Assembly: GCA_010093995.1 (NCBI GenBank)
Contig: ML992523.1
Coordinates: 82,266 to 103,548 of the forward strand
DNA from: Elsinoe ampelina
Lineage: Eukaryota
Reading direction: 5' to 3'
DNA length: 21,283 nucleotides
Shown in pieces: positions 580 to 21,283 of the stretch; positions within the stretch are counted from its first letter, which is position 1; each line of letters starts with the position of its first letter. The notes beneath the pieces were generated by a model. It did not search any database. It was not told the origin of the DNA and was given only the letters and a program-made list of their open reading frames with translations. A program made the position numbers and the translations under genes.

Positions 580-810
580 TTTAGTACTATACTAGAGTTT
601 AGGTTAGCCTCTAGCTAGCGTAGTGCCGCTAAGAGCTTAGTAGTACTAGTACTAGCTCCGTACTATAGCTATAATAGCACTATACTAGTACTAGGTATAG
701 GTTAAGTTATATATATTCTAGACGTAGTATAGTACTAGGTTAGGTCGGTAGATAAGTAGTATAGTACTATTAAGTCCTTAGTGTACTTTTACTAGCACTA
801 TACTAGAGTT
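580..810. repeat. hAT left subterminal array of short TAGTAC/TAGCAC/GTGCC-type motifs
   Basis: Dense TAGTACTA, TAGCACTA and TAGTGCCG copies in both orientations just inside the TIR. hAT elements are known to carry subterminal transposase-binding repeats. Confidence 0.6.
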
Positions 811-2027
811 ACTATTCTTATAGTAAATTCTTATAGTAACTACTATGTTCTATAACTCTTATTACTTTTCTGCTCTAAATACTTAAAGTTATAGTAGGTA
901 AAGAATACTAGAGAGAAGCAAAAGTTATTAATTATTAACTCTTATATATAATTATAACCTAATAGTAATTTATAGAAGATTAACCTAATTAATATTATCT
1001 ATATAACTCTTATAAGTCTATTTTATATACTTAGCTAGTAAGCTATATACTACCTAGAACTAATACCTTATTATCTTATTATCTACTTGATCTAGAGAAT
1101 ATTCTATCCTTAGTAAGTTTACCCTTATATAAATTATAACTCTTAACTAGTAAACTAAAGTACTAAAGCTATTAGGTAGAGTCTAAGACTAGAATAATTA
1201 GTTCTAGGTAGTTTAGCCTTTCTACTAACTTATAGTACAGTTGCGGATTGCCTTAATACTATTAGATTACTAGTTAATAGTAAGTATAAGGCTATCTAGG
1301 GCCTTAATCTTTGCCTAAAGGTTGTTAATAAATTTATAGTAAGTAATATTAGCCTAACGAATAATAGAGAGGCAAGTAGTAGATATAGTAGTAGATTTAC
1401 TTAAATTCTAGCAACTATTAGTATAAGTTATACTATAGCGACGTAAAGGTATACTAGATAGTTATTTAAATGTTTCTAAGGAGAGAAAGAAGTAACTTAG
1501 CTAATAATCTACTTATATCTCTTAGTATAATAATAGCTATTGTTTAATAATAGCTATTATTAGTATTGTTGTTTTTTTATAATAGATAATAGCTATTATT
1601 TATATTATTGTTCTTATAATAGGTAATACTAGATATATATACCTTTTAGTTACTATTTCTTCTTCTTTCTCTTAAACCTCTCTTTCTTATTGTTTAATAC
1701 TTTCTTCTATAATATCTTCTTCTTATACTTAACTCTACCTCGACCTAGTAGATCTAATTCTCTTTTAGCCTTATAAGATAACTCCTAGTAACTACGCTAG
1801 GCCCTTATACCTACGCTAGTTTAAAGCCTATATCTACTATATAACTCTTATATATCTTAACTTTAATAATAACTACAAAATCTAAGCTAAATATATCTAT
1901 AATAACTATAGAGGTTCGGTACTTCGCTATAAAGCCTACTATACTTATAATACTCCTTATAACTTTATAGGTGTTTCTAATCTAATCTTTCTTTATAATC
2001 TAATAAATATTAGTATAATATCTTATA

Positions 2028-2344: not shown

Positions 2345-5300
2345 ATCTTAATCTTAGATAGATTAGTAAAGGTAGTATAAAGCGTAAAAGACTAGTTACT
2401 TAGTACATTAAGTAGAATATATTAAGACGTCTACTATAGATTTATTTCTATAATTGTATAATAGCTGCTATTTATTAGCTATAAACAACTAAACAATATT
2501 TGTTTTATTACTGTTTTCTCTCTTAAGATTAAGCACCTATTAATCTTATTAACAATTATCTAGTTAAGACTAGTATAAAGATCTTAATACCTAGAAGAAT
2601 TAACTTAAAGGTTATTAACCTCCGGATCTCGACCTTTATCTATTTATTTACTAAGTTCTTTTCTACTCTAGAACTTATCTTTAGCTATAGAAGACAATAA
2701 TACCTAATTAAAGTAGCTAGTACCTATACTCTCTAAAGATAACTATAAGAAGTAGTTCTAATAAATAGAGCTCTAGCTTATATTAAAGAAGGTGTTATAG
2801 ACTCTTACTTCCCTTACTAAACTATTAGTAATAACTCTAGAGTTATTATTAACTTCCTTATTTAACTCCTAGTATTTTCCTCTATTAGTAGAGAAGAATA
2901 GTACTACCCTTTACTAGATCTATAGATATATCTCTAAGAGAGATTAAGAGATAATTTAGAAATAGTAGTAGGCTAAGCTAGCTTAGGAGAAGCTAAAGAG
3001 CAAGTATATAAAGTAGATAGGTATATAGGTAAGACAACTTTAGAAAGAATTTATAATATATACTATAAGTAATAATATAACTATCTTAGATACCTAGTTA
3101 TACCTAACTATATTAGGAAGGAGAATTAATAGGTCTTTAGAGATTAAGTAATACTCCTTACTAATAACAAGAATTTAGAGACTACTTAGTACTCTTTTAG
3201 CTTTATAGTTAACTATAAGAGATGCCTTAGATACTTAACTCTACCTTAGTATAGATAAGATCTATAACATTCTTAAAGAAAAGAAAGTATAAAAGGAAGA
3301 AGGGGAATCTACTATATTTATAAGAGGTAGACTATAACAGAGAACTAGTAGAAGCTTAAATTATATATGTATCTTATATAAGGAACCTAGATACTCTATA
3401 TTAAGGTGTCCTTATCTCTAATAAGCTAAGAAGTATATCTAGCTATCCTATAGAGTTACTAAAAGGAGTAGCCCTATAAGAAGATAGTTACCTAAGTGCT
3501 AGAAACTACTTAAACTTATAAGATAGCTTACTAAGAGAATAGACTCCCTTAAAGTAGCTAAATTAAGAAGGAGAGGTAAAGCCTATTTAGCTACTAAGAG
3601 TAGTTTATTATTAACATCTCTATCTCTACTACTAGAAGTTCTACCTAGGAATAAAGAGCTTAAAACTATAGGTTCTACATTAGAGGTTTAAGGTAAGCTT
3701 CTACATTATTAGTAGATACTTAACTCTAGAGTATCTAACTATATAATAGATAAGCTAACTCTCTTTAGGGGCCTATTAAGTAAGATTTACACTTAATAGA
3801 TCTAGGTTAGAGAGAGTTACTTTTAGTTATAGTTAATAGGAACTATAGTTATTAAGACTAAGAAGGGAGATAAGATAAAGGTATAGGCTCTTTATATACC
3901 TAATCTTAGTATTAATTTAGTCTCCTATTATAAGCTATACTTAGATTTAGGCGTTTCTAGAGTTTTTAATTTAAATTCTTTTCTTGTCCTTAATTAGTAG
4001 AAGTAACTATTACTTAAAGCTAGAATTTAAAGGGGGGTATATATTATCTAATTCCTCTTTAAGTAATTAGCTAATTAAAAGCTGTATTTTAGATCTAAGC
4101 CTAGCTTAATTCTAGATCTAGCTAATTAGGATTTAGTATTCCTTACTACCTAGCTTATAATTATATTATAGACTAAGTATACACATCTAACCTAGGATAA
4201 GTAATAAGAGAATCTTATTAACTTAGGACCTAATAACTCTAAGATAGAGTATTAGCTCTAGTATAGGAAATTTACTTACCTTAGAATTAAGAAGCTTAAG
4301 AATCTTTATAAAGTTATAACCCTTAAGAAACCTATTAACCTAAACTATAATCTATCTATTCTATATAAGGTCTGTTCCCTTACTAAGATAAGGAATAGAA
4401 GAGGTAAAACCTTATAGAGAAGACTAGAGGTTCTTTAGCTTATCTATACTAATATCTATAGCCTAATTAAAGTAAGTAGAGAAGGATTTAGATACTTCCT
4501 AGAGCTTATAGATAGCTACTTAAGAATAATATAGATTAGTCTACTTAAGATAAGAGATAAAGCTCTATAAAGGCTTATTAAGTAGAAGCTAAGAGTTAAG
4601 AAGGAAAGTAATACTAAGGTTAAGGTTACTAGATTAGATAATACTAGTAAACTTAATAAGATCCTAAAGTAGTAGAAGCGCTAAGAAGGTATCTATTATA
4701 TAACTACTAAGTTATATAATTTAATTTAGAATAGACTAGTAAAGAAAGGTATCTAAACCTTAGAGAATAGTATAAGAGCAATACTTAAGGACTTAAGGAT
4801 ACTAAATAAGTTCTAGCCTAAAGTAGTTTAGGTAGATATATATCTAAGGAATAGAATAGTAACTAGACCTATAATTAATAATAAGTAAGTTATACCTATT
4901 AAGGCCTATATAGGCATTAAGCTATTAGTTAATTATATTAGGGTCTAGGGCTATAAGGTATATACCTATATAAACCTAAAGTCCCTTCCTATATATAGAA
5001 GAAAAGACAAGCTTATAGATAGAAGAAAAGTAGAAGTATTCCTTAGCTATATAAATAGAACTAACAGGATATACAAGATATAGGCACCTAATAGAAAGGT
5101 AGTAATTATATTACTAAATATTAAATTCTCTAAGTTTAAGAAAGGTAGTAATATTAATCTTAGTATTAGAATTAATACTATAAGTAATTAAGCACTAGTT
5201 AGGAGACTAGTTAGTAGACTAACTTAGATTTAGACTAAGGTTAGATCTAGGATAGACTAACTAAATTAGCCTATTTAGAATAAAGCACCTATAGGGAGAA

Positions 5301-7155
5301 TCTTTTTATATATTAAGATCCTAAGAGTTAACCCTATTAACATTATAGATTTCTAACATAGAAAAGAGCTAATAGTTTAATCTTTACTAACTAACTATAT
5401 AAGTTAATTACTTAAGAGATTAAGAGATAATAACTCTAATAATAAAGGCTCTAAAGCTAAGTACTATAGAGCTTTTATTACTAAGTATATTAATTAGCAA
5501 GATAAGGTTAATAAGATTACTATAATAGCCTCTATTAAGTAATATGTCCTAATCCTAAGGGACTACTATAAGGCTATTACTAATCTAGTATAGGAAAGTA
5601 AATAGTAGAAAGTAATTAATATAGAGCTTAATACTCTATACTTAAATAATACATAGGAAGAGGTTATTCCTCTAAAGGGATCTAACTTAGTAATATCTAA
5701 ATAGGTCTTTAATGTTAAGTATAACATAGATAGCTCTATTAAAAAGTTTAAGGTTAGACTAGTTACTAGAGGCTTCTTATAGAAGTATAGTATTAACTAT
5801 AAAGACATATTTATACTAATAGTTAGAGTAGACATACTTAGACTATTCTTTACTATTATATATATACTTAACCTTAAGTATTATTAGGTAGATGTTAATA
5901 ATACCTTTATAGAATTCTTTCTTTATAAAAAGATCTATATAAGGCTACTACCTAGACTAAAGATTAGTTCTAGATTTGCCTTCCGGATTCTAAGGAGCTT
6001 ATATAGACTTAAGTAAGCTACTAGAGACTAGAACTAGTACTATATCTCTAAGCTCCTAAAGCTAAGCTTTACTTAAAGTAAAGTAGACCTTTATCTTCTT
6101 ATATACTATAATAAGAAGATTATTCTTTTAGTTTATATTAATAATATACTATTTGTAGCATAAAGTAAAAAGAACATCTAGTAGTTTAAGCAAGAACTTA
6201 GTAAGATCTTTAAGATTAAAGATCTTAGCAAGGTTAATAAAGTTCTTAGAGTTAAAGTTATAAGAGATAGATAATAAAGCACCTTAAGACTTAATTAAAC
6301 CTACTATATAGATAATATGCTATAGAGGCTTAATATAACCTCTAATAAGGTTACTTTAACAAAGTAGCTAATAGATAATAAGCTCCCTTAAAGAGCTTAG
6401 GAAAATAATATAAGGTTTAGTAGAACTAAGTACTTATATACTATTAGAAGCTAGATATACCTTAGTACCCTAATAAGGCTAGATACTACCTTTGCCTTAG
6501 GAAGGCTAAGTTAGTTTATAGCGGATCTAATAGATAGTTATACTATTAAGATAAAGAGGATATTAAGATATATTAGATTAACTAAAGATCTTAGTATTAT
6601 ATTTAGAAGGAATAGGAATAAGACTCTTAAGAGATACTCTAATTTAGACTATACCTTAGATAAGTTAGATAGGGTCTCTATCCTTAGATATGTCTTTATA
6701 CTTATAAGTAGTTCTATTAGCTAGATAAGTAGGAAGTAGAAGTCTGTTTTAACCTCTACTATAGAGGCTAAATATATAGTAATATACTCTTATATAAAGA
6801 GATTATAGTTCCTGTCTTAGTTACTAAGAGATATAGGCTATTATAAGATAGTTAGGCAATTACTATAGAGGCTAACTATAAGAGAATCTTAGAAAGTAAT
6901 AATAAGATTACTCTTTACTACTAGGATTAATAGTAATAACTAAGTAGCTCTTTTACTTATAAAAGAGCTATATACTTATAAAAGGGTAAAGTACATTAAT
7001 ATTGCTTACTACTACGTTAGGAGGCTATAGAGAGACTAGAGGATTTAAGTAGAGTTTATAAGAATAGTAGACATAGTAGCTAATAGGTTAACTAAGCTAT
7101 TATAAGGTTAGATCTTTATAAGGTTTATAAAGTAACTTAGCTTATTATTAACCTA
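2345..7155 (+). pseudogene. copia gag-pol polyprotein, single frame, many RIP stops (ends approximate)
   Basis: All motifs lie in one frame: zinc knuckle C-I-L-C-K-E-P-G-H-S-I-L-R-C (3368-3409), protease WILDSGASNHM (3713), integrase LIHTDICGP (4439), RT KFKARLVARGFSQKYGIDY (5744) and VYVDD (6131), RNase H GYSDSDYA (6632), KQKSVSTSTTEAEY, KHIDIAYH, DMVADGLTKP (about 7070). Confidence 0.95.
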
Positions 7156-7184: not shown

Positions 7185-7385
7185 TATTAAGAATATAGCT
7201 CTCTCTAGATAATTAGGCTATAAAGTTATATAACCTTAAGTTATATAATACTAAGGCCTAGGGATTTATAGCTGTTCTTTCTTCTAGTAGATAGACTTCT
7301 TAATTAATTAACTCGTCTATTACCTAATTAGTGTACGATTAGTTCTATATAATATTTCACCTCTAAACGTACCTTCTACTTAACA
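7185..7385 (+). repeat. copia 3' LTR (201 bp)
   Basis: TATTAAGAATATAG...CTACTTAACA, preceded by the purine-rich GGAGCTAAGTAGGAG (degenerate PPT). Confidence 0.97.
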
Positions 7386-8146: not shown

Positions 8147-8609
8147 TATTACGAACTAGTAGGATAGCTAGAGCGTAGGGATATTAGAACTAATTAAACT
8201 ACTAGAGTTATTACGTAACCTAGCCCGACGTTTATCTAGTTCTTTATCTTCTCTAGTAGCTCTACTTTAGAGACTATAGAGCGCGTAGGTTACTAGTAGA
8301 TATATACTCTATACTACCCCTAGCTTTCGCTACGGAGTATATAGAGTATATAGAGTATATAATAGAGAATATATATATATAAGAATAGTCCTTACCTTAT
8401 ATAAGTACTATAGTTAACCTTGTCTAGATAGCGAACACTAGTATTACTAAGGCTAGCCTTTATAATACTATTTAATTGTACTTTATTATCTATAAGACAT
8501 ATCTTCTCTAACTCTTACCTTAGTACTATACTACTATAGAAGTAGAACTACCTCGTTCTTAGCTTAGCTTAGACTACTAGCGTAGGCTATGTTTAGACAG
8601 TTCGTAACA
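8147..8609 (+). repeat. gypsy 5' LTR (463 bp)
   Basis: TATTACGAACT...AGTTCGTAACA (terminal inverted ends); direct repeat of 14699-15161 with about 41 differences by manual count, all transitions, no indels. Confidence 0.97.
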
Positions 8610-8626
8610 TTTTAACTACCCTTACT

Positions 8627-10708
8627 ATAGTATAGTATACTACGAGGTTAATAAGTAACTCTTACTTTAAGTTACTATTAGTATCTTTAATCGCTAGTAA
8701 GCTAGGAAGACTTACTATTAACGATATATCTACTACTAGTTTAACCTCGGGCAAATATAGAAGGTCTCTTAGTATAGAGGAGAGACGAAGTAAGCCTAAG
8801 CTAGAGGTAGAACTCTTCTATAGGGACTATACCTACTTAAGGCGCTTTCTTGTTTAACTTAAAGCCTTCTTTACTCTAGAGAGAGATAAATACGCTAACG
8901 ATATAGTAAAGGTTCTCTATACTAGAATATACCTTAAAGGCGCTACCTTCGAGTAGTTTAAGCCTTATATAAGTAGCTACCTAGACGGATAACTAAGTCT
9001 AGATATAAAGGCTATCTTTAAGAGTTTTAGTATCTTCTAAGCGAAGATTAGGTAAGTCTTTAATATATCTAATAAGGAACGTATTACTATAATAAAGATT
9101 CGACAACTACGATAACGTAGGTCTATAGCCTAGTACTATTTCTAGTTCTAATAACTCGTAATATACCTAGACTAGAATAATAGTACTAAATATTTAGTAT
9201 TCTACTAAGGACTAAGCGACTTAGTTAAAGACTAAATAATACCTAAGCTGTCTAATAGCCTCTAAGAACTAGTAGATACTATAATTACTATTAATAACTA
9301 ACTTTATAAACAACATATAGAACGTTATAGAGAATATAAGGTAAATACTAGATATATACGTTCCTCCCGGAACTATAGAGACTCTATAGAACTTAACGCT
9401 ATACGCGAAGGTTGCCCCTTATAGGTAAAGGGCTAAAGTTACGAAGGAAAGTTTCTTAGTAGAAAAGAGAGAGAGAAATATAGATAAGATAACTTATATT
9501 TTAAGTATAAAAGACTTAGGTATTAGGCTAGGGACTACTAGTAAAGGGCGCTAGCTAATAGATTATATATAATAGTTGCCGGGCTAGTAGAGAAAAAGGC
9601 TAATACTACTATAGAAGACCTAATAACCTTTAGTATAGGTAAGGAAATATAAAAGAAGTCTACGACGACTTAAGAGGTAATAGAATTCTCTCTAGATGTT
9701 ATACTTAATATCTCTACGACTAATAGTAAACAATAAAGCTAACACGTAATACTATTATAGATAGCATATTATAATAACTCTTATTATATTTACTTATTAG
9801 ACAAGTAGGGATCTAGTTAGTTCCTATATAAGCTACCTAAGCGTAGGTAACTAACGAGATAGCTAGACTAGGAACCTAACCTAGAAGAGCTCTCTATAAT
9901 TAGTAGTAACATTAACTAACCTTAGAAGGTAGTTAGCAATAATTACTAATATACAATTATTAAGACAAAGTATTAGAATATAAGTACTATATAACAATAT
10001 AGTAGCCTTACCTTTAGCTCTTATAGTATACTATAAGGAAAGGTATATTATATATCGCTCTAGAAATGTATAAATCTAGATTATAAATAGTACTACTCTA
10101 TCTACTTATATAATGTACTTAGAGAAGACACTATTAGTCTCGAATATACTATAGACTTCTTAGTAATTAAGATAGGTAGTACTATTCCCTATAGCTAAGT
10201 ACGAGAGTATACTCGATGTAGCCTTACTAACTATAACTATATAGAGAGCAATAGCGATAAAGAGAAATATAACAAGAAATATACCGAATAACTATAGTAT
10301 AATAATATAAATAAGGACTTATCTAACAACGACGATATACTACTACTAGGTAGACGACTTAAAGTATACCTTATAGAGATATAGAGGAATTATATAATAA
10401 TATACACCTACTACTAGAATAGGATATAATAAGATAAATCTATATAACTTACTTTTATCTTTAATACTAACACCTAGCTATGCCTAGAGGGAATAGTTAT
10501 ACTAGTATAGGTATATAACACTACTTAGTATAACTAGTAGAGAATTATTAGACTTTATAGTTATTAAGGAACGTAAGTACTAGAAGTTTACCTTACTATA
10601 TTAAGTAGTAATAAGACACGACTTGCCTAATAGATATAGTACTAATAGTAGATACGTATAGAAAGGGATTAGCTACTTATCTAGGGAGCTACAATAATAA
10701 AAAACTAG
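8627..10708 (+). pseudogene. gag: chromovirus Gag with long C-terminal extension (start approximate)
   Basis: One frame: LFxGD..HLRRFLVQLKAFF (about 8810), YLKGAAFEWF, FYQGLSD.VKD, GDPMELDA (9377), zinc knuckle CFKCGRLGHQARDC (9497-9538), HxxLSWTACYDDSCxxHLSDKQGSGWFP (9743-9826); ends AAA AAC TAG. Confidence 0.9.
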
Positions 10709-10740
10709 TAAGTTATTACCTAATAAGGTAAGATAATAAC
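10699..10740 (+). promoter_or_regulatory. -1 programmed ribosomal frameshift signal
   Basis: Heptamer A AAA AAC (10699-10705) is correctly phased in the gag frame, followed by TAG. After a 6-nt spacer comes a potential stem GTTATTACC...GGTAAGATAATAAC. Pol lies in the -1 frame. Confidence 0.85.
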
Positions 10741-13700
10741 ACTAGCTAAAGCCTTAGTATAATAAAGATTTATATATTAAATTACTTTATACTAGAAGTC
10801 TAGATATAAGAAAATAAGGTAAGAGTAATAATAGATTTAGGAGCTAACTATAGCTATATCTCTATAATAGTTACTAATTAGCTTAAACCTTATTAATATT
10901 AGAAGGAGTTACTTTACCTACTTACTATAGCGGATAGAACCTCTATAGGAAAGGACAGGAAAGTTACTTAGGAACTATAAAACGTTATAATCTAAATCGA
11001 AATATATATAGAAAGACAATTAATCGATATAGTTAACATATAGTATAATATAGTACTTAGTATAGACTAGCTTTAATAATATAATCTAGACGTAGACTAG
11101 ATTAAAGAAATACTTAAATTCCCTAAGTATAATTATAGAATATAGAGAGTATAATTAGCTCCGCGAATACTAACTATAAGAATAGTATAAGTATAACTAA
11201 TAGTTAGAGCTATCGCTAGCGTAAGTAATTAAGTACTTCCGCTAGAATATAAAGACTTCGAGGACTTATTTAAAGAAAGAGAAGGTATCGTAGCCTTACT
11301 CTAATATAAACTATAGAATTACGAAATACCTTTTAAAGAGAGTAAATCCCTAATACACTATTAAGGTCTTATACTACTATTAAAATAAGAGAAGAATATT
11401 CTTAAGAACTATATTAATAAGTACTTACTTAAAGGATTTATACAACTATTAAAATTACCTATTATGTATAGAGTACTTTTTACACTAAAAAAGGATAGAA
11501 CGTTATAAATATATATTAATTACTAGAAACTTAATATACTTACTAGGAAGAATCGCTATCCCCTACTAAGGATTAATAAACTTTAAGACTAACTACTTAG
11601 AGCTAAATAGTTCACTATAATTAACATTAGAGATGCCTATTATTAAGTATAAATAAAGGAGGGCAAGGAGTAGAAAACAGCTTTTAGGACGTAATAGAGT
11701 CTATATAAGTACCTCGTTATACTCTTTAGGTTAACTAATACTCCTATAACCTTCTAAGAGTTAATTAATAATACTCTATAAGAATACCTTAATAACTTTA
11801 TCTTAGTATATTTAGACAATATTATTATCTTCTTAAAGATGTATAATAAACATATAAGACATATTTATAAAGTGCTACGGAAACTAAAAGAAAAAGACCT
11901 ACTAGTAAAGCTCTCTAAGTATAAGTTTTATAAATATAAGATACAATTTCTAGGCTATATTATATCTACTAATAGTATTAGACCTAATCTAAAGAAGATT
12001 AAGTTAGTAAACAACTAGCTAGAACCTATAATAGTTAAGGAGGTTTAAGCGCTACTAGGATTCTTTAACTACTACTACAAATTTGTTAAAGGATTCTCTA
12101 AGGTAGCTATACTAATATCTAACCTTACAAAAAAGGAAACTAGCTTTGTCTTTAACAAGAAGTATAGGTAGGCCTTTAAGGAGCTAAAGCTTAGACTTAT
12201 AATAGTACCTATCCTAGTACTCTTCGACTTAGACTAATAGGTACTACTAGAGATAGATACCTTAGACTTTATAATAGAAGCGTATCTAGCGTAGAAGAAT
12301 ATAGAAGAATAATACTACCTAATTGTATACTACTTACGAAAAATAACTAGACCTAAACTTAACTACAATATATATAATAAAGAGTTACTTGCGATTATAG
12401 AGGCATTCTATAAATAGAGAGTATACCTAGAAGAGATAACCTTACTAGTATAAGTCTACACCGACTATAAGAACCTTCTATATTAGACAATAACTAAGGT
12501 TCTTAATAGATAATAGGTTCGATAGTTAAAAACACTTATAAGCTATAACTTTTAGATCTACTATATTAAGGGATTAGAGAATAGTAGAGTAGACGCTCTT
12601 AGCTAATAACTAGATTACTTAAAGAATATAACAATAATAGAGGCCTCTATACTAAAGTAGTAAGATAGTGCTTTAGTCTATAAGTACCCGAAGGTAGAGT
12701 AGTTATGTAGCCTTACCTAGGAGCTTATATAAGAATAGAAATAAGAAATTATTTAAATATACTATAATAACCTAACGGTAGAACATAGCGGGATTAATAA
12801 GACTATTAAACTTATTACATAAAACTACTTATAGAAAGAACTCCGAAACAATATTAAGACGTATATCGCCGCCTACGATATATGCTGCAAGTCTAAGCAC
12901 TTATAATACAAGCTATATAGCCTATTATAACCTCTACTACCACTAGACAAACTATAGTAATTAGTTATAATAGACTTTATAGGACCTCTACTACTATTAG
13001 AAGAACCTCTTATAGGTGTAAAGTATAATAGTATTCTAGTCCTAGTAGATAGGTTTATAAAGTATTACTACTTCGTACTATATAAGATAATAGTAACTAC
13101 CGAGGATATAGCCTTTACCTTCCTCTAAACAATTGTTTTATAATATAAAGTACTATAAGACCTAATAACTAATAGGGATAAGCTATTTACATTACAATTC
13201 TAGTAATTATTTATAGACTTACTAGGAGTTAAATATAAGCTATTAACCTCCTTTTATCTATAAACGAATAGATAAACTAAATAGGCAAATAAAGTACTAG
13301 AGTAGTACCTATAATACTACCTAAACTATAAGTAAGACTTATAGGTAACACTATTACTACTCGCGGAGCTTGCTATTAATAATAGAAAGTTAGTAAATAG
13401 AATTTTACTATTCTATATAAACTATAGAATATACCTAGATCTATACTATAATACACTCGGAATTAAGCTAATATCTAAGAATATTAACATATTAGTAGCT
13501 AACATTAAGAAACTATATAACTAGCTATACTACGATATAGTATTTATATTATAAAGAATAGTAGAGTTTACTAATTAGAAGAGAATTACGGGACTAATTC
13601 TATAGAAGGGAGAGAAAGTTTACCTCCTTAGTAAAAACATTAAAACGAAATAACTAAGTAAGAAACTTAACTATACTAAACTAGAACCCTTTAAGATTCT

Positions 13701-14099
13701 AGAAAAGAAAAATAAGAACGTATATAAACTAGAACTACCGAGACATATAAGAATCTATCTAGTCTTTTATATATCGCTACTAGAGAAAGTACTATAGAAT
13801 ACTATACCTAGACCTATCGAACTAGATAAAGAAATATAGGAGCTATAGTACAAGATTAAAAGAGTTTTACGCTATAAACTTATAAAAGAAAAACGCTACT
13901 ATCTTATTTACTAGAAAGGACATTAGTATAGTAAAGTAATATAGGAACTAGAGAAGTACCTTACCTTATAAGTAATTCTAGATTACTAGATTAAGAACCT
14001 ATCCTAAGTAAACTAACTAGATAGACCTAGCACTTCTAATACTAAATAAAAACAAGAACGCCTAAGGAGAATTACTTAGCTAATAGAAGCACCTTAATC
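10699..14099 (+). pseudogene. pol: chromovirus Pol (protease, RT, RNase H, integrase, chromodomain) in the -1 frame relative to gag (3' end approximate)
   Basis: One frame: AMIDSGAN (Asp at 10834), IDIRDAYYQ, YLDD (11809), LETDASD (about 12247), NYDIHDKELLAI, VYTDHKNL, SVTMDFI (12961), ITDRDKLF, FHPQTDGQTER, GPF (13684), IHPVFHISLLE, chromodomain YEIERVL...YYLIHWKG...ATWEP (13849-13950). Confidence 0.95.
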
Positions 14100-14624
14100 G
14101 TTACTAAATAGAGAACTCTAGTTAGAGTTAGGCATAAATAATTACTAATTCTATAGTAGGATAGAATCTACTGACAATAATATTTCCTTCTACTCTAGAA
14201 CTTAAATATAAGTCTCCTCTAGAGAGATTACTTTCTCCGCCTTATTCTCTAATTTCTATATCTCTTCGCGTAGGTAAAGCTTATTACCTATAGCTCTTTA
14301 ATAAGCCTCTTTTGCCTTTTTATAAGCCTCTTTAGCTTCCTTTCTAGTAGCCTTAGCTATAACTAATTCCTTTCGTAAATAAATATACTTAGACTAGAGA
14401 CGCTACTATTCCGATTTTGTTACTTAAATATTATAACCTAAGTAGTTACTTATAATATACTAGCTATAGATACCTAACCGAATATAGACCTTATAATCTA
14501 GCCTCTTCGATTTATAATAAGAATAAGCCTATAGTATATTAGTTCTAAATAGTTTAATAAACTCTAAGAGATTCTTTCGTATAGATATACTAGATTTACT
14601 ATGCCTTTAACAACTAGGAGGCAT
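14076..14624 (-). pseudogene. Antisense accessory ORF of the chromovirus (about 180 aa): six-Cys Zn-cluster-like domain plus coiled coil
   Basis: ATG at 14624. Six TAT codons (TGT after de-RIP) are spaced C-x2-C-x6-C-x8-C-x2-C-x7-C (14525-14433), followed by VTKSEWQRL and an E/K/A/R-rich helical region. Confidence 0.75.
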
Positions 14625-14698
14625 ATTTAGTATATAGCGTATATAGATAAGGAGAGATACTTACTTATTAGAACAACTCGATTAAAGAAGAAAAGTAA

Positions 14699-15161
14699 TG
14701 TTATAAACTAGTAAGATAGCTAAAGCATAGAGACGTTAGGACTAATTAAACTACTAGGGTTATTACGTAACCTAGTCTAACGTTTACCTAGTTCTCTATC
14801 TTCTCTAGTAGCTCTACTCTAGAGACTATAGAGTATATAGGTTACTAGTAGACATATACTTTATACTGCCCTTAGCTTTCGCTACGGAGTATATAGAGTA
14901 TATAGAGTACGTAATAGAGGATATATATATATAGAAATAGTCCTTACCTTATATAAGTACTATAGTTAACCTTGTCTAGATAGTAAATACTAGTATTACT
15001 AAGGCTAGCCTTTATAATACTATCTAATTGTACTTTATTATCTATAAGACATACCTTCTCTAACTCTTACCTTAGTGCTATACTACTATAGAAGTAGAAC
15101 TACCTCGTTCTTAGCTTAGCTTAAACTACTAGCGTAAGCTATATTTAGACAGTTTATAACA
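14699..15161 (+). repeat. gypsy 3' LTR (463 bp)
   Basis: TGTTATAAACT...AGTTTATAACA, followed by the TSD ATAAG. Confidence 0.97.
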
Positions 15162-15292
15162 ATAAGCTTCCTTAGGGTAGCTAACAAAGAAAGACTATTA
15201 GTATTAGTAGGTAGAATTATATATAGTAATAAAGAAGGTACGCGTAGAAGTGCTTTAGAGTAAGTATTAGTATAGATACTATAAGAGTGTTA

Positions 15293-17885
15293 TTACTTAG
15301 AGGCTATTAACTAGATATGCTTAGAATACTAGCCTCTAACCTTAGTAATAGTATATAGTAGATCTTTGTCCTTATTATACTCTTCTTTCTCGTTAATCTC
15401 TTTATTACTTAAACTATAGATAGTAATATCTCTAAAGTTGTTACTTATACTATCTATTCCGCTATTAGTATTATTATTAGTAGTAGTAAAACTGTCTATC
15501 TTAGCTAATTAAATGTTTTAAAGATTGTTTTTTACTAGCTTAGAGACTATAATTTATTAAATTATCTACGGAAGTAGTCTATACCTTTAATTGCTAATAA
15601 TATTCTTTACTATATTAAAAACACATTTAATACTTACGCTAGCGATTAGTATTATAAGAACATTATAAGTAATATAAGCTAGTTATAGAAATAAGTATTT
15701 ATTTTCTTTCTACTAAGAAAGAATATTAAATTCTAATATTTCCTATATAGGCGAAGTTCTAAGGTAATTCTTCTCTTCTATCCTTATTATATAGATATTA
15801 CTCTACCCTTACAAAAGTATATTATCTTAGCTAGATACTAGAGGTATAAAGCTACTCTTTATATTTAATAAGGAAGGCTTCTTAAACTAGTAAGTAATAG
15901 ATAAGGCTAGTAGAGGAGGTAGGAGAGTAGTTTAAGAAGAATAGTTATTATTATAGTAATTAAGGTAGTTAAGAAACTATTTATAGTAAAGTAATTTAAA
16001 ATATAGTTCCTACGAAGTATACTTATATATACTAAGTTTCTAAGTTAGATTTAAGATTATACTATAATTAAATAGAAAACCTTAACCTCTACTTGTTTAC
16101 TTATAATACTTAAAAAGCTTAGTATAACTAGCTTTTACTACATTTTATATAACTAATAGCTAGTCTAAGTTATTATTCTCTTTCTAAGTAGACTTAACTA
16201 CGTTAAGGAAGTTAAAAAGAGTATTATACATAAGCTATATATATTATACTAATAGTATATAAGACTAACTTAGCTAGTAAGTTATATTCTTAAAATTCTC
16301 TAGTATTTAGATAATAATCTTTAGATATACCTATTCGGTATAGCCGAGGTAAAGGCGTATTATATCTATATAATTAATAGATACTATATCTTAATTAGCT
16401 AGTACTTTGTTAGTTTAGAGCTTATATATAATTACAATCTCCGTGTTAAGCTATTTATTAATAATTAGTTAAAGTTTAATAGCTCGCTTATATATATTAT
16501 ATATCGAGTTCTAATAGGTATAAATGTCTCTAACGACTAAGAGTTATTTATAAGGAGGTAGATGTACTTAAAGGGATTTAAAGTGTTAGTAGCGTTAAGA
16601 GAATTAGTTAATTATAATACAAATTATATAGAGCTTTAAAATTAGTTAAAAAACTATAAGAAAGAACTATAAGAAATATAACTTACTTTATAAAGGGAAT
16701 TTAGAACTAATAGAGTTATTTAAATATTATAGAGATACTACTTCTCGAGCTTATTAGCTTTCTTATTGTCCTTAGTAGTTTCTAGCTATAGGGCTTAAAT
16801 AATATTTTATATAATAAGATTAATTACATAGGCTAGATATAGAATTATATTCTTAATAGAGGACTAGTATATACTCTTTTTCTTAAGACCTTATTATACT
16901 TTAGATTATAGAGTGTTATTGTTACTTATATTATCTACTATAATAGCGAGAAGATATATATTAATCTTTTTTTTATTTAGAACTCTTAGTAGTTCTATGC
17001 TAAGTATAACTCTAGTATACTATCTACTAATTAGTATAAAATCTAGTAGACACTTACGTACTTACTAGTTATTATTAATATAGTATACCTTTATAGCTAT
17101 AAAACTTAGATAGTTATTCGTAGACTAGCTATCTAGCGTAATTAAAACTTTTATCTAACTACTAAGATTAGTAAGAAGATTAGACTAAATGTCCTTATAG
17201 TGCTCTTTTAATAGCTTTAAGGCCCGTATCTAACCTAGAATATTAGTATATAGCTAGAGGAAATATATAAATTAGAGAAAGAAGAAATTATTAACTATTT
17301 AGAATAACTAATTACAATTAATAAGGACTTTAATAAGCTCTTTTTTAAATTGTTCTAGGGAGAATTATAGTATATAGAATATAGTACTAGTAGTATTTAC
17401 TTTTAATTATATTAGAGCTATCTAAGCTACTAATTATTTATAGCTAGGAGATTTTATATTCTAGTAGCTTTAGCATCTAAGATGTTTTATTAGGTGTTTA
17501 TTACTAATTAAGTTCGTTATTAGGTGTTATAAAGCTCTACTATAGTAGAGACAATATATAAGAGGTATTCTATTAGTAAGCTTAGCACCTTTATTAAAGT
17601 TAGCCTAAATAACTCTATAGCGAGTTATAGAATTCTAGTTTAGTAGGTTTCGTATTTCGCTAACTCTTAATTCGCTACCTATTAATATTATAGACTACTA
17701 TATTTTCTAGGCTTATATAGCTAGCTATTCTTTAAGTAGTATATCTAGTTAGTAGGGCAAATAGCTAATAATTTTAATAGTTTTATAGAATTAAGTAGAG
17801 GATAAATTATTCTAGTAATTAATATAGAACTCTTTAAGCTTATAGAAGAGAGGTAGTAGTAGCGTAATAACTTTTAAAAGTATCT
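15293..17885 (-). pseudogene. hAT transposase, RIP-degenerate, one intron at 16686-16634 (ends approximate)
   Basis: BED finger CLHC...HLIKHL (17553-17480), TLDGWS (Asp at 17133), VDNASNN (16935), CLAHVINL, RDICTRWNSTYDM (about 16530-16495), and dimerisation domain WWKENE..FPQLA.IA.DVLAIPIASVSVExVFN (15715-15610), then an acidic tail. A 53-bp GTAAGT...CTAAT...AAG intron exactly accounts for the frame change. Confidence 0.93.
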
Positions 17886-18099
17886 ATAGTTAAGAATTAA
17901 CTAAGTCTTTATTAAATACTAACATTTTAAGAGTAGAGATATAGAATATTACTAGCTATATAACAAGAAGTAGAAGACTATAAGAATACTCTATAAGAAT
18001 TTATTAGCTACTCTTAATTTGTAGATTAAAAAAATTTTAATAGTATAAAACTAAAAAGCTACTAAAACTATAGTTTAATTTTCCTAACTTAAGATTAAT

Positions 18100-19371
18100 C
18101 TATTTATTCTTATCTATATTATTCTTACTCTTACTTTTCTTATTATTATTATTACTCTTATCTATTGCCTTATTATTATCTTTATCCTAATTCTCTTTAT
18201 TAGAATTATTAAAGTCTCTAGTAGTAACTACCTTATAGTATATTTTAGCTACTTCCTTAGTCTTATACTTATTAGGTTCCTTATTAAGAAGGTTCTTAAT
18301 CTTAGAGTTATTCTTAACTTCTTCTTTAACCTTATTATTACTATACTTAATATAGTAATTATTAGATTTAAGTAAAATATTATTATTCTTATACTTAAAT
18401 TCTAGTTTAGGAGTAGATTTATATTTGCTTTAATAGATTAGTATATAACTATAAGAAATAACTATAAGAAATAATATATATCTAATTATCTACCTATACT
18501 ACTTAGAGTTTAGTAGGTGTTATATTCTTAATAAACTTCTTAAACTTAGCTTAGTTACTATTGTTATAGTTACTAGTATTATATAGTAAATTAACGCTAT
18601 TATAGTAGATCTTATAGGTCTATTTCTTAAGAATTCTACTAGTGCTAAGAAGATATTTTACTTAGTAATTTAGAAATATATTTGTCTTATTATAGAGTGC
18701 CTTCTTTATATAATTAGTAAAGAGTTACTTATAGTAAAGAAGAGTATTAGCTTTATAAATACTACTTTATTTTTAGTAGATAGATATAAACTTATCCTTT
18801 AACTATTCCCCTATATAGAATTAGTAAATATACTATAAGAATATACTATAAGAAATATACTACTCTACTAGGTATAATAGTAAGTCTCCGCTATCTTCTT
18901 ATATACTATATTAAAGGTAGCTTCTTTTTCCTTATCGAATATTACTTAGAATTCCTTAGAGTTTTTAAGTTTTACCTTAAGTATATATTTTATAGAGCAA
19001 TTAGTATTACTAGTAGTAGTAAGAGCTTTCTCCTCTATACTAGCTTATATAGTATAATCTCTTTACTAAATAGCTTACTAGGTATTACTAAGCTATACTT
19101 TCTACTATAGAATTCTAAGAGAGTAGCTATAGTAAAGAGTTCTAGTATTCTAAGAGCGATTTTTAATCTAGTATTTAATCTTATTAGCCTCGGAATTAAA
19201 ACCCTATAATCTAGTTAGTATTTAACTATAAGAAGCATCTATAAGAATTACTTCTATTATAGTAAGAATTACTTTCTCTTCCTTAGTTATTTCTTTAGTC
19301 TTAATTACTAGAGTATTAGTTATCTCTTTCTCTTTACTAAAGGTTTACTAATCTATAGAATTAGTAGACAT
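18100..19371 (-). pseudogene. Spliced accessory gene of unknown function inside the hAT, with acidic (D/E-rich after de-RIP) C-terminus
   Basis: ATG at 19371; a 120-bp first exon; intron 19251-19204 (GTAATT...TACTAAC...TAG); intron 18860-18811 (GTATAT...TACTAAT...TAG); probable intron about 18493-18428; AAT/AAG/GAT-rich tail ending at TAG 18102-18100. The frames of the middle exons were not fully resolved. Confidence 0.6.
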
Positions 19372-19747
19372 TATAGATTAAGAATTAGTAGTAATTTATA
19401 AGAGAAGGTAGAATATTAAGTATAATAGAGAGTAAGATATAAGATATAAGTTTTATAAGGAAAAGATAAGAAGAGAAGAATTTAGTATTCCTTATATATA
19501 TAGTAAATAGAGTAGCTAGAAATATAAGTAATAATAGGTATTAATTCTATTATTATACTAATATAAAGTTATTAATATTATTAATATAAAGTTGTTATAG
19601 TAGAGAATAATAATACAAAATTCATATTCTATATACTATTATAAATTCCTTAATAAGGCTTAATATCTTACTCTTAGTATTTTTGCCTTACTCTTCTTTA
19701 CCTTTATAAATAAATTTTAATAATTAATTTAACAAATTTACGTAGCT
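19372..19747. promoter_or_regulatory. Putative bidirectional promoter between the accessory gene (-) and the H3-like gene (+)
   Basis: A 376-bp gap between divergent start codons, with TATA-like boxes (about 19493 and 19640) and pyrimidine-rich leaders on each coding strand. AT-richness weakens the TATA evidence. Confidence 0.45.
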
Positions 19748-20329
19748 ATAGCTCGTAAGAAGTAAGTAACACCTCTAAAAAGAGTAAAGCTAAGAAAGTA
19801 AGACACTAAGAAAACTACTACTAAAAAGCCTACTATAGGTAGTTATATAATAAAATTTAAACTAGTATTAACTAGACAAATTTGCTAGGTAAAGAGCTAT
19901 AGGTTTAAGCTAGATAGTTAGTTTCTTATAGTAAATTCTTATAGTCTTATATCTAATATAGTATAGCTATTACTCTCTAAGAGATTTATCGCTACTAGAA
20001 GACAACTAAACTTCTTATATATAAGCTTCTTTTCTCCTATATTATTTATAACATTACGTAAGATATTAAGTTAACACTTATAAGTAGAGATTTATACTTT
20101 ATGCTAGATACTATTAAGTGTCTCTAGGAAGTAAGTAAGGTAATACTAGTAGAATATTTCGAAGGTATATTAACTATATATTTAGAATATATAATACCTT
20201 ATACTAATAACTATAGTAGACTATAATCTTAACGCTATCTATACTAAGCGTTATACTATTATATAGAAAGACTCTTAGCTTACTAGGAAATATTATAATA
20301 AGTACTACCTACTTACTTTCTCTAATTAG
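19748..20329 (+). pseudogene. Histone H3-like gene captured in the hAT (3 exons: 19748-19916, 19967-20164, 20220-20329)
   Basis: De-RIP translation: MARKKQ...KPRKQ...[75 protein letters not shown]|DCNLNAIHAKRxTIMQKDSQLARK, collinear with the histone H3 fold. Both introns have GT, a CTAAT branch site and TAG, and both restore the frame. Confidence 0.93.
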
Positions 20330-20439
20330 TAAGATCTCTTCTCTATAATACTATAAGAATAGACTATAAGAAATAGGTAAGTGTATTTTTACATAGACTA
20401 GACTATTAAATTTTCTTTCTATAGACTTATTATAATGCT

Positions 20440-20740
20440 AAAGTATAGTATAGTAACTATAGTTACCTTAAAGCCTAACTAAGGTATAGTACTATAACGT
20501 AGTATAATACTAGGATTTAACTCTAGTACTAATTTAGTATAGTACTATTATAGTATAGTATAGCGCTATTATAGTATAGTACTATTCTTGCTTATCTATA
20601 GTATAGTACTAGTGCTAGTATAGCTTAGCGTAGTACTAGTACTAGTACTAATATAGTAGAGTATAGAGCTAGTACTATTTAGTTTAGCACTAGGTACCGA
20701 CTTACTAAGAACAGCTCTATACTAGTACTAGAGTTAGCCT
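20440..20740. repeat. hAT right subterminal array of short TAGTAC/TAGTAT/TAGCAC motifs
   Basis: Many copies, e.g. TAGTATAGTACTA, TAGTGCTAG and TAGCACTAGGTACCG, mirroring the left array. Confidence 0.65.
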
Positions 20741-20749
20741 TTAGCTACT

Positions 20750-20775
20750 CTAACTCCGCCCTAATAGTTATACTA
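20750..20775 (-). repeat. hAT right terminal inverted repeat
   Basis: CTAACTCCGCCCTAATAGTTATACTA, followed directly by the TSD AGTATTAG. Confidence 0.9.
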
Positions 20776-21283
20776 AGTATTAGATATAGAGATATTCTAT
20801 CTCTACTCTTTAAGATAAATAGCTATTACTAGTTTATAGTTCTTAAATTTATCTCCTCTATTAGAGATAAAGATAAATAAAAGCTTATTATAGACTATTT
20901 TATTCCTTATATAAATAAGTTTAATTACTACTAGTATATTACTCTTAAGGAAGAGAATAGTAATAAACTTATACTTACTTTTACTATATATTACAAAGAG
21001 AAAGTATTTATAGCTCTTACTTAACTATAGGTTAATAAGACTAATAAGGTCTAGATAGAGCTTATTTAGTAAGTACTTTAGTATATCTCTTAGTTCTCTT
21101 AATACTACTCTCTATGTCTTTAATATAGTATATAGTTTATAGTAGCTAAGATCTAATATTTAAAGTTCTTCTAATCTAATAGCTTAACTTTTAGTAAGAG
21201 AAAGAATAGTATTACTAACATAGCTTAACCTCTAGTACTATCTTTCTAATATTAGCTTTTAAGTAGTTATAATAGCTAGATTT
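20776..21283 (-). pseudogene. Ty1/copia retrotransposon (host element): integrase core, first two catalytic Asp regions, RIP-degenerate
   Basis: The minus strand de-RIPs to L-D-K-L-H-L-D-L-I-G-P-I, G-H-K-Y-F-L-F-V-T and I-S-D-G-G-G-E-F. It joins 1-543 across the AGTATTAG duplication. Confidence 0.85.

Follow-up and report, generated by a model that had tools for sequence, protein, structure and literature searches.

Positions 15173-20752 of the analysed stretch (21,283 nucleotides of Elsinoe ampelina DNA, hereafter the window) very probably correspond to a single copy, inactivated by RIP, of a hAT transposon with three genes, whose family was originally reported from Pyrenophora tritici-repentis (Ptr). 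The element is 5,580 bp long. Its minus strand carries the remnants of a transposase and of a "central ORF", and close to its right end lies a divergently oriented gene similar to histone H3 (H3L). As a dead copy, it adds a member to the Ptr hAT-H3L transposon kind rather than founding a class of its own. The original prediction had mentioned H3-like genes associated with hAT elements in Ptr, and had allowed that the class may not be wholly new: the precedent exists, and this kind of element is already described in Manning 2013 (PMC3538342).

A histone gene on a transposon is unusual, and the role of H3L has been a question since 2013. The window adds a RIP-killed member of the hAT-H3L kind from another fungus. 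New here are the evidence for an older and more diverse family, in which the three-gene layout and the fold are conserved and the H3L introns shared, and an unexplained intron family bearing paired 9-mers. The features identified are reported in Table 1; loci indicated by L and a number are relatives of the element found on metagenome contigs, described below.

Table 1. Features of the hAT-H3L element, in window coordinates
Feature	Position	Strand	Evidence and remarks
Proposed left terminal inverted repeat, TAGGGTAGCTAA	15173..15184	+	11/12 bases match the reverse complement of 20741-20752; the lone mismatch is a transition
hAT transposase remnant, RIP-inactivated	15539..17634	-	Pfam, Ptr P0180 and L036 alignments
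Transposase intron, paired 9-mer core 16654-16675	16634..16686	-	exact core; GTAAGT upstream, CTAAT and AG downstream
Paired 9-mer core upstream of transposase remnant	17978..17999	-	exact core; intron-like flanks, without branch site
Central ORF remnant, conserved second gene without known domain	18253..19041	-	weak L036 exon matches
Paired 9-mer cores between central-ORF exons	18449..18470, 18833..18854	-	exact cores
Paired 9-mer core upstream of central ORF	19226..19247	-	exact core
H3L exon 1	19748..19916	+	ATA in place of the start codon; N-terminal tail divergent; 3 stops
H3L intron 1	19917..19966	+	50 nt; phase 1 in T45-equivalent codon; paired 9-mer core 19923-19944
H3L exon 2	19967..20164	+	histone fold alpha-N to alpha-2; 4 stops; 5-codon loop 1 insertion
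H3L intron 2	20165..20219	+	55 nt; phase 1 in D106-equivalent codon
H3L exon 3	20220..20329	+	alpha-3 and C-terminal extension; 2 internal stops and terminal TAG
Paired 9-mer core, antisense just downstream of H3L stop	20351..20372	-	exact core
Right subterminal array, short TAGTACTAG-like repeats	20497..20731	.	direct reading and self-matches
Proposed right terminal inverted repeat, reverse complement TAGAGTAGCTAA	20741..20752	-	likeness to left end and to ends of relatives

Structure and identity of the H3-like gene

The region 19748-20329, on the plus strand, contains a three-exon, RIP-damaged H3-like gene, and the exon coordinates and splice junctions originally proposed (19916/19967 and 20164/20220) were the same on re-reading. 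Both introns start with GT, end with AG and contain a CTAAT branch-like site. The spliced frame measures 477 nt, corresponding to 159 codons; it includes 10 stop codons (6 TAG and 4 TAA), 9 of them internal and 1 terminal, and no frameshift is found across 158 codons. The tail encoded by exon 1 ends with R-F-K-x-(G), the same as in one of the intact lineages (lineage A, see below), while exon 3 carries the family hallmarks N110, S124, Y130 and Y131, with a C107-compatible codon. From the stop codon to the proposed right end at 20752 the distance is 423 bp, in keeping with the first estimate of about 450 bp.

When exon 2 was compared to solved structures, with X in place of stops, the best match had an E value of 2e-5, and all of the 60 rows shown were histone H3. 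The same exon matched the Pfam Histone family (PF00125) with an E value of 0.0032 and 18.1 bits, under the 26.4-bit cut-off, as RIPed sequence; exons 1 and 3, each searched alone, gave no Pfam match. A transition-aware alignment to canonical H3 was evaluated over 118 codons, a codon being defined as transition-compatible if the H3 residue may be obtained from it by reversing T-to-C or A-to-G changes. Identical codons were 49, compatible ones 44 and incompatible ones 25; the first two classes add up to 93/118, as compared to a mean of 22.9 (sd 3.8, maximum 34) in 1000 shuffles, which bears out the match to H3 after transition-only reversal, as claimed in the original prediction. The presence, within a hAT transposon, of an H3-like gene with two real-looking introns is confirmed at the sequence level.

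No further H3-like stretch was found across the window, nor was H3L found beside the paired 9-mer located at 815-836. Exon 2 was also compared to a set of 1.8 billion representative proteins, obtaining 14 matches at E<=0.001; the four inspected are duplicated canonical H3, and none of them is a closer relative. Exon 2 fits canonical H3 at 47/60 positions and the Ptr H3L at 44/60, the latter counted by eye. Since the two fits are about equal, membership of the family rests on hallmark sites, introns and context, rather than on overall identity.

Extent and gene content of the hAT element

The exact right end of the element was set on the basis of the 12-bp inverted repeat and of the likeness to the ends of relatives. 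The end of the intact L003 element, TAGGCTGGCAAA, and those of L007 and Ptr, TACGCTGG(T/C)AAA, all resemble the window ends, which fit terminal repeats of the TA(C/G)GCTGG(C/T)AAA type found in the family; two positions differ from L003 beyond transitions, and 2/12 bases differ from the Ptr ends in the same way. The resulting size fits the near-5.6-kb size of the family. A search for inverted ends in purine/pyrimidine code performed no better than on shuffles, and the ends are therefore based on the exact letters and on the relatives. Units similar to those of the right subterminal array are found at the left end, between 15194 and 15283. An 8-bp target-site duplication was not recognisable in the flanks 15165-15172 and 20753-20760, where 2/8 bases are identical, or 6/8 allowing transitions; it may have been lost through RIP and nested insertions. 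A Ty3/gypsy element, bounded by LTRs at 8147-8609 and 14699-15161 and by a 5-bp duplication (ATAAG), ends 11 bp to the left of the proposed hAT end. One contig joins 15159 to 20801, with 21 letters on its shorter side; it was rejected as an empty site because the sequence from 20801 is unlike the sequence following the 5' LTR.

The transposase was recognised on the minus strand by Pfam Dimer_Tnp_hAT (PF05699), at about 15545-15772, with an E value of 1e-5 and 25.6 bits versus a cut-off of 21.4; in a Pfam scan of both strands of 15162-19753, nothing else reached E=1. The Ptr protein P0180, described as "Dimer-Tnp-hAT dimerization containing protein", aligns on the same strand in two segments, 17340-16675 and 16636-15575 (E=1.2e-54), and its C-terminus is identical, by eye, to the translation of the left end in the published Ptr consensus. 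Among 47 transposase matches at E<=1e-20, the named relatives come only from Ptr, Boeremia exigua and, weakly, Rhizophagus. The transposase exons of L036 map in order to 17634-16684, 16624-16022 and 15730-15539. The aligned transposase frames contain 54 in-frame TAA or TAG per 576 codons.

Two of the four exons of the L036 central ORF could be placed in the window by weak matches, in order: exon 4 at 18381-18253 (E=1e-4) and exon 2 at 19041-18877 (E=6.6e-6); the other two were sought in the window and not detected. A central-ORF exon had no match among proteins of the "longer" length class, which is weak evidence. The L036 H3L maps at 19969-20184 of the window.

Intact relatives on metagenome contigs

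Metagenome contigs were searched by using the Ptr form of the 9-mer pair as pattern, obtaining 121 stretches, many of them surely due to chance; out of 119 pattern loci, 11, located on 9 contigs, include an H3-like gene. Open H3L genes were identified within the loci by a generic GT-AG search. They fall into four lineages: A (L036 and L047, 145 aa), B (L026 and L008, 150 aa), C (L003, 144 aa) and D (L007 and L006, 164 aa). H3L frames are open in all four, with a G+C content of 42-45%, unlike the RIPed window. The order transposase, central ORF, H3L is found in L003, L007, L036 and L047, that is in three of the four lineages; L026 and L008 contain central ORF and H3L, lineage B having no transposase in the 12 kb examined. 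In Pfam, L036 matches Dimer_Tnp_hAT with an E value of 3.6e-18 and Histone with an E value of 5.1e-27 (95 bits for its H3L). The transposases of the relatives are 44-65% identical to that of L036. These loci share with the window the three-gene layout, the hallmarks, the intron places, 9-mer pairs within introns and close to the ends, and related terminal repeats.

The phase-1 intron at D106 is present in 4/4 intact lineages, at the same place as in the window; the phase-1 intron at T45 is found in lineages B, C and D (3/4), lineage A being without intron 1. At least 3/4 of the intact H3L proteins are unlike H3 in 16 alignment columns. In the window, 7 of these columns are compatible with the H3L state, and at 4 of the 7 (C107, N110, S124 and Y130) the window codons exclude the canonical residue. 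The 5-codon insertion in loop 1 of the window H3L is found in 0/4 intact lineages. The A-R-K-S context at K9 is altered in 4/4 lineages, and A-R-K at K27 is retained.

The matches of the L036 H3L in a set of 5.8 billion proteins are dominated by canonical H3, with only its own cluster, P0018, being distinct. In a quick tree the 4 H3L proteins were separated from 49 H3 of canonical length by a branch with SH-aLRT 98; the tree, which includes no named Pezizomycotina H3 and no CenH3, has very long H3L branches, and the separation is open to long-branch attraction. Within the H3L fold, pN ranges between 0.24 and 0.28 and pS between 0.68 and 0.88 among the four intact lineages; the ratios, 0.15-0.18 where computable, are rough because synonymous sites are saturated. 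With pN well below pS, H3L appears to be maintained by selection in the family, and the values fit purifying selection. As far as can be judged from these sequences, the intact relatives suggest that the element has retained H3L over a long time, rather than carrying it as a transient by-product of capture.

Paired 9-mers and the origin of the introns

The paired 9-mer found in intron 1 occurs in 8 exact copies in the window, and in 10 if up to 3 mismatches are allowed, as compared to 0.98 +/- 1.03 in shuffles. Five of the exact pairs are on the minus strand of the element: the transposase accounts for two, one within its coding remnant and one upstream, and the central-ORF region for three. 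The others are located one in H3L intron 1, one in antisense after the H3L stop, and one outside the element, at 815-836. In 7/8 pairs a GT is found 3-21 nt upstream (5-12 nt in five of them), with a CTAAY and an AG end downstream, except for the branch site at 17978; the pair at 815-836 has no upstream GT. The two transposase alignments are separated exactly at core 16654-16675. From the extent of the alignment, the core at 17978-17999 may be part of a possible 5' leader intron. In intact loci, paired 9-mers are similarly found between exons, together with inward-facing arrays near both ends; at the place corresponding to the antisense core downstream of the H3L stop, L036 features a tandem array of the motif (5984-6044, minus strand). 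A literature search on introners and hAT elements returned nothing on a paired-9-mer intron family. Introner-like elements are defined by nearly identical introns spread over many unrelated genes of the host, whereas the paired-9-mer introns were examined within the element.

The original prediction had taken the retained introns as an argument for DNA-level capture, a reading which these data do not sustain: the core of intron 1 is common to the five intron-like sites on the minus strand, and lineage A lacks this intron. Taken at face value, the intron marks reported by Yun and Nishida 2011 for 24 fungi, none of them Dothideomycetes, place an intron at D106 only in Basidiomycota. The second H3-like copy of Pseudocercospora fijiensis contains a 16-residue insertion not present in the H3 of its host, according to Dhillon 2019 (PMC6710886); the consensus, read by eye, shows it to be a 49-nt interruption at D106. 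Lineage A, the D106 survey and the P. fijiensis insertion together indicate that the introns are no sign of capture of a host genomic H3: they belong to the H3L lineage and to the element.

An independent and recent capture, at the DNA level, of the host's own intron-bearing H3 by an unrelated hAT is very unlikely. The introns do have GT-AG ends and branch sites, and intron 1 is at most 2 codons away from a canonical Aspergillus H3 site, such sites being marked near A7 and P43 (Yun and Nishida 2011, marks at face value). Yet the H3L hallmarks and the C-terminal extension are common to four other lineages and unlike canonical H3, both intron places are shared family-wide, the second one at a site marked outside Basidiomycota in none of the fungi surveyed, intron 1 contains the element's own paired 9-mer core, and the transposase is homologous to that of Ptr.

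Comparison with known elements and with CenH3

The Ptr element is 5.6 kb long and contains a hAT transposase, a central ORF and H3L between inverted ends; about 26 near-identical copies are reported, with ESTs, in Manning 2013 (PMC3538342). Its consensus was taken from Additional file 2 of Dhillon 2019 (PMC6710886), and H3L was compared by eye, not by tool. The window element is like the Ptr one in size, of about 5.6 kb, in its homologous transposase (see the P0180 alignment above) and, by eye, in the order and orientation of the genes. By the same reading, both introns of the Ptr H3L fall in the same codons and phase as in the window, intron 1 is built in the same way (9-mer, 4 nt, 9-mer, branch site), and the two H3L share S68, Y103, N110, S124, Y130 and the C-terminal extension as derived characters. 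The two elements differ in their state, the Ptr copies being, in the published account, nearly identical, unmutated and expressed (ESTs), whereas the window copy is RIP-saturated and dead. They further differ in one base of the 9-mer, beyond RIP changes, and in the H3L protein, the window having the 5-codon loop 1 insertion and a different tail.

A literature search for further reports of hAT-H3L found only Manning 2013 and Dhillon 2019. The latter describes a hAT-borne H3-like sequence in six Mycosphaerellaceae, with all copies RIPed, interpreted by the authors as a retrocopy of the host H3 without introns. It is very improbable that the window element belongs to this family, known from elements of about 9.5 kb in hundreds of RIPed copies. 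Like the window, these elements are amplified, confined to AT-rich blocks and RIP-killed, and the second H3-like copy of the P. fijiensis consensus is interrupted, by eye, at the same two places as H3L. They contain, however, one or two H3-like copies, versus the single H3L in 5.6 kb of the window, have no paired 9-mer in common with it, and end differently (TAGACCCC in P. fijiensis, TAGAGGTTAG in Cercospora zeae-maydis); moreover, the P. fijiensis copy has neither N110 nor S124 (by eye). The comparison with the published consensus sequences was made by look-up of short strings and by eye only. Of the first 10 short strings of the window, one 9-mer alone was found in the seven consensus sequences; the window form of the 9-mer occurs once in the consensus file and the Ptr form 11 times, the four passages inspected all being Ptr.

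CenH3/CENP-A resembles the window H3L in having diverged from H3, with its tail rewritten and loop 1 extended. The fungal CenH3 rows in the alignment of Yun and Nishida 2011 show R-W-Q-S after loop 1; at the position of the W, the codon of the window H3L is TTT (F), which transitions cannot produce from TGG, and F, M or I is found in the intact H3L. CenH3 is a single-copy centromeric gene, whereas H3L is a multi-copy transposon gene. A CenH3 identity was rejected for the window H3L on these two grounds.

RIP damage and copy number

RIP consists of C-to-T and G-to-A changes in repeats and makes no indels. The G+C content of the window ranges between 22 and 35% throughout, and in every part tested the indices have values typical of RIP: TpA/ApT is 1.78-1.97 and (CpA+TpG)/(ApC+GpT) is 0.07-0.15, the usual thresholds being about 0.89 and about 1.03, respectively. 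All internal stops in the H3L and aligned transposase frames (63/63) are TAA or TAG. When the window was compared to other copies in run X1, 314 transition and 10 transversion sites were found; most differences are A/T in the window and G/C in the other copies, which places the window copy among the more mutated.

In two DNA runs from one sample, summed contig depth is even across 15269-20620 and far higher on both flanks; it climbs in the bin 20621-20843, and a loose contig end is found at 20774. At each of three listed H3L sites, the less mutated letter is present in 6 to 11 contigs per run. Deletion forms are also seen among the contigs, such as one skipping 19023-20208. Two runs presumed to be RNA gave 2 contigs and 1 contig, respectively, all aligning in part, which is uninformative on expression. 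The even depth and the several contigs per site indicate that H3L is part of a multi-copy repeat. A one-off insertion, which the original prediction had named as evidence against its claim, is thus not borne out: H3L lies within a repeated element, and relatives carry it too.

That a functional histone variant is still produced from the window copy, for instance by read-through or because its stops are assembly errors, has hardly any probability and is already contradicted by the sequence. Such a reading can appeal to the frame, unshifted over 158 codons; since RIP makes no indels, however, an intact frame is uninformative on function, and against it stand the nine internal stops, the lost start codon and the position of this copy among the more mutated ones. 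As all three genes are now pseudogenes, this copy has no activity left and is simply AT-rich repeat DNA.

Chance resemblance to H3, for which the low complexity of this AT-rich region speaks and nothing more, is practically impossible and already refuted by an alignment score of 145 against 16.5 +/- 2.2 in 100 codon shuffles (maximum 22; reversed H3, 17), by the match to solved structures reported above, and by neighbour genes collinear with those of intact relatives.

Possible role of H3L

The RIP-inactivated hAT-H3L copy of the window is explained by a course of events in which homology, gene order, intron places, RIP damage and multi-copy state are observed, and past mobility and the order of events are inferred. 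An active element would move by hAT cut-and-paste with H3L aboard as a resident gene; the family would have multiplied in the Elsinoe ampelina genome, and RIP would then have struck.

The role of chromatin modulator or anti-silencing variant, put forward in the original prediction, stays putative. A wider reading, in which hAT-H3L is an old and diverse family keeping a working H3 variant and a conserved acidic central-ORF protein as a self-serving chromatin module, is tentative and rather doubtful; one possibility is that such a module might mark or shield new insertions against silencing based on H3K9 methylation. The intact relatives make the purpose of the transposon's own histone testable with real sequences.

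Most introns of the three genes contain the paired 9-mer, in the sense of the gene, and it also occurs in the inward-facing arrays near both ends. Its distribution makes it a candidate binding site, which could couple splicing or expression of the element genes to the transposase; alternatively, it could be the trace of intron gain within the transposon. In terms of annotation, H3-like matches in AT-rich fungal repeats of this type are transposon cargo, and no extra host histone genes.

Intron structure of H3L and the paired 9-mer

The introns of the histone H3-like gene (H3L) of the hAT copy lie at the codons equivalent to T45 and D106. In the second H3-like copy of the P. fijiensis consensus element, inspected by eye in Dhillon 2019 (PMC6710886, Additional file 2), intron-like stretches break the same two codons; the stretch at D106 is 49 nt long, which fits the "16-residue insertion" of that paper. 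The captured gene is called intronless in that paper.

A core in which the same 9-mer stands twice, with a 4-nt spacer, is common to most introns of the element's transposase, central ORF and H3L, and its orientation follows the sense of the gene holding each intron (Table). The motif is also found in loci L036, L003, L007 and L040 and, in intact elements, arrays of it lie near both ends, pointing inward. No description of such an intron core was found in the literature searched. The core may serve as a binding site, or may be a relic of intron gain within the transposon.

Features located in the window
Feature	Position	Strand	Remarks
Ty3/gypsy retrotransposon, RIPed	8147-15161		LTRs and Pfam domains
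Ty3/gypsy LTRs	8147-8609, 14699-15161		~92% alike; TGT...ACA ends
Paired 9-mer cores	16654-16675, 17978-17999, 18449-18470, 18833-18854, 19226-19247	minus	
Paired 9-mer core	19923-19944	plus	
Paired 9-mer core	20351-20372	minus	
197-bp direct repeats	2030-2226, 7187-7383		95% alike; 5.2 kb apart
TAGTACTAG-like array	630-840		array resembles subterminal array of hAT; span includes the paired 9-mer at 815-836
Separate, far more abundant repeat	about 20774-21283		right of hAT

Central ORF and H3L tails

The central ORF (window 18253-19041; 3620-5129, minus strand, in L036) is conserved across 7 loci, with 40-49% identity per exon, and matches no Pfam family. In L036, a metagenome-contig locus of an intact relative, the C-terminal part of its product is a long acidic stretch. 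In two other such loci (L026 and L008) the ORF still adjoins H3L, though no transposase is seen. That the protein is a histone partner is only a guess.

In all four intact H3L proteins aligned (L036, L026, L003 and L007) the A-R-K-S context of K9 is changed, and A-R-K is retained at the place of K27. Intact H3L tails evolve fast, with pN values of 0.34-0.58, and this pattern of altered K9 and retained K27 contexts may therefore be without meaning.

Deletion derivatives and neighbouring repeats

Contigs from two DNA runs of one sample bridge window positions 17469-19080 and 19023-20208, with 17 and 22 other letters at the joins. Deletion derivatives of the hAT-H3L element are therefore present in that genome, one of them without most of H3L.

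The Ty3/gypsy element, which lies to the left of the hAT with 11 bp between their ends, is accompanied by a 5-bp duplication (ATAAG) and contains Pfam matches to RVT_1, RNase H, an integrase zinc finger and Tf2-1 SH3. The repeat right of the hAT has a contig depth 6-10 times higher and a loose end at 20774, and showed no likeness to the Ty3/gypsy element when the two were compared. The 197-bp direct repeats probably represent the LTR pair of a further, smaller retrotransposon. The TAGTACTAG-like array is followed by an exact paired 9-mer (815-836), and neither a transposase nor H3L comes next; this feature is probably the terminus of a truncated or deleted relative.
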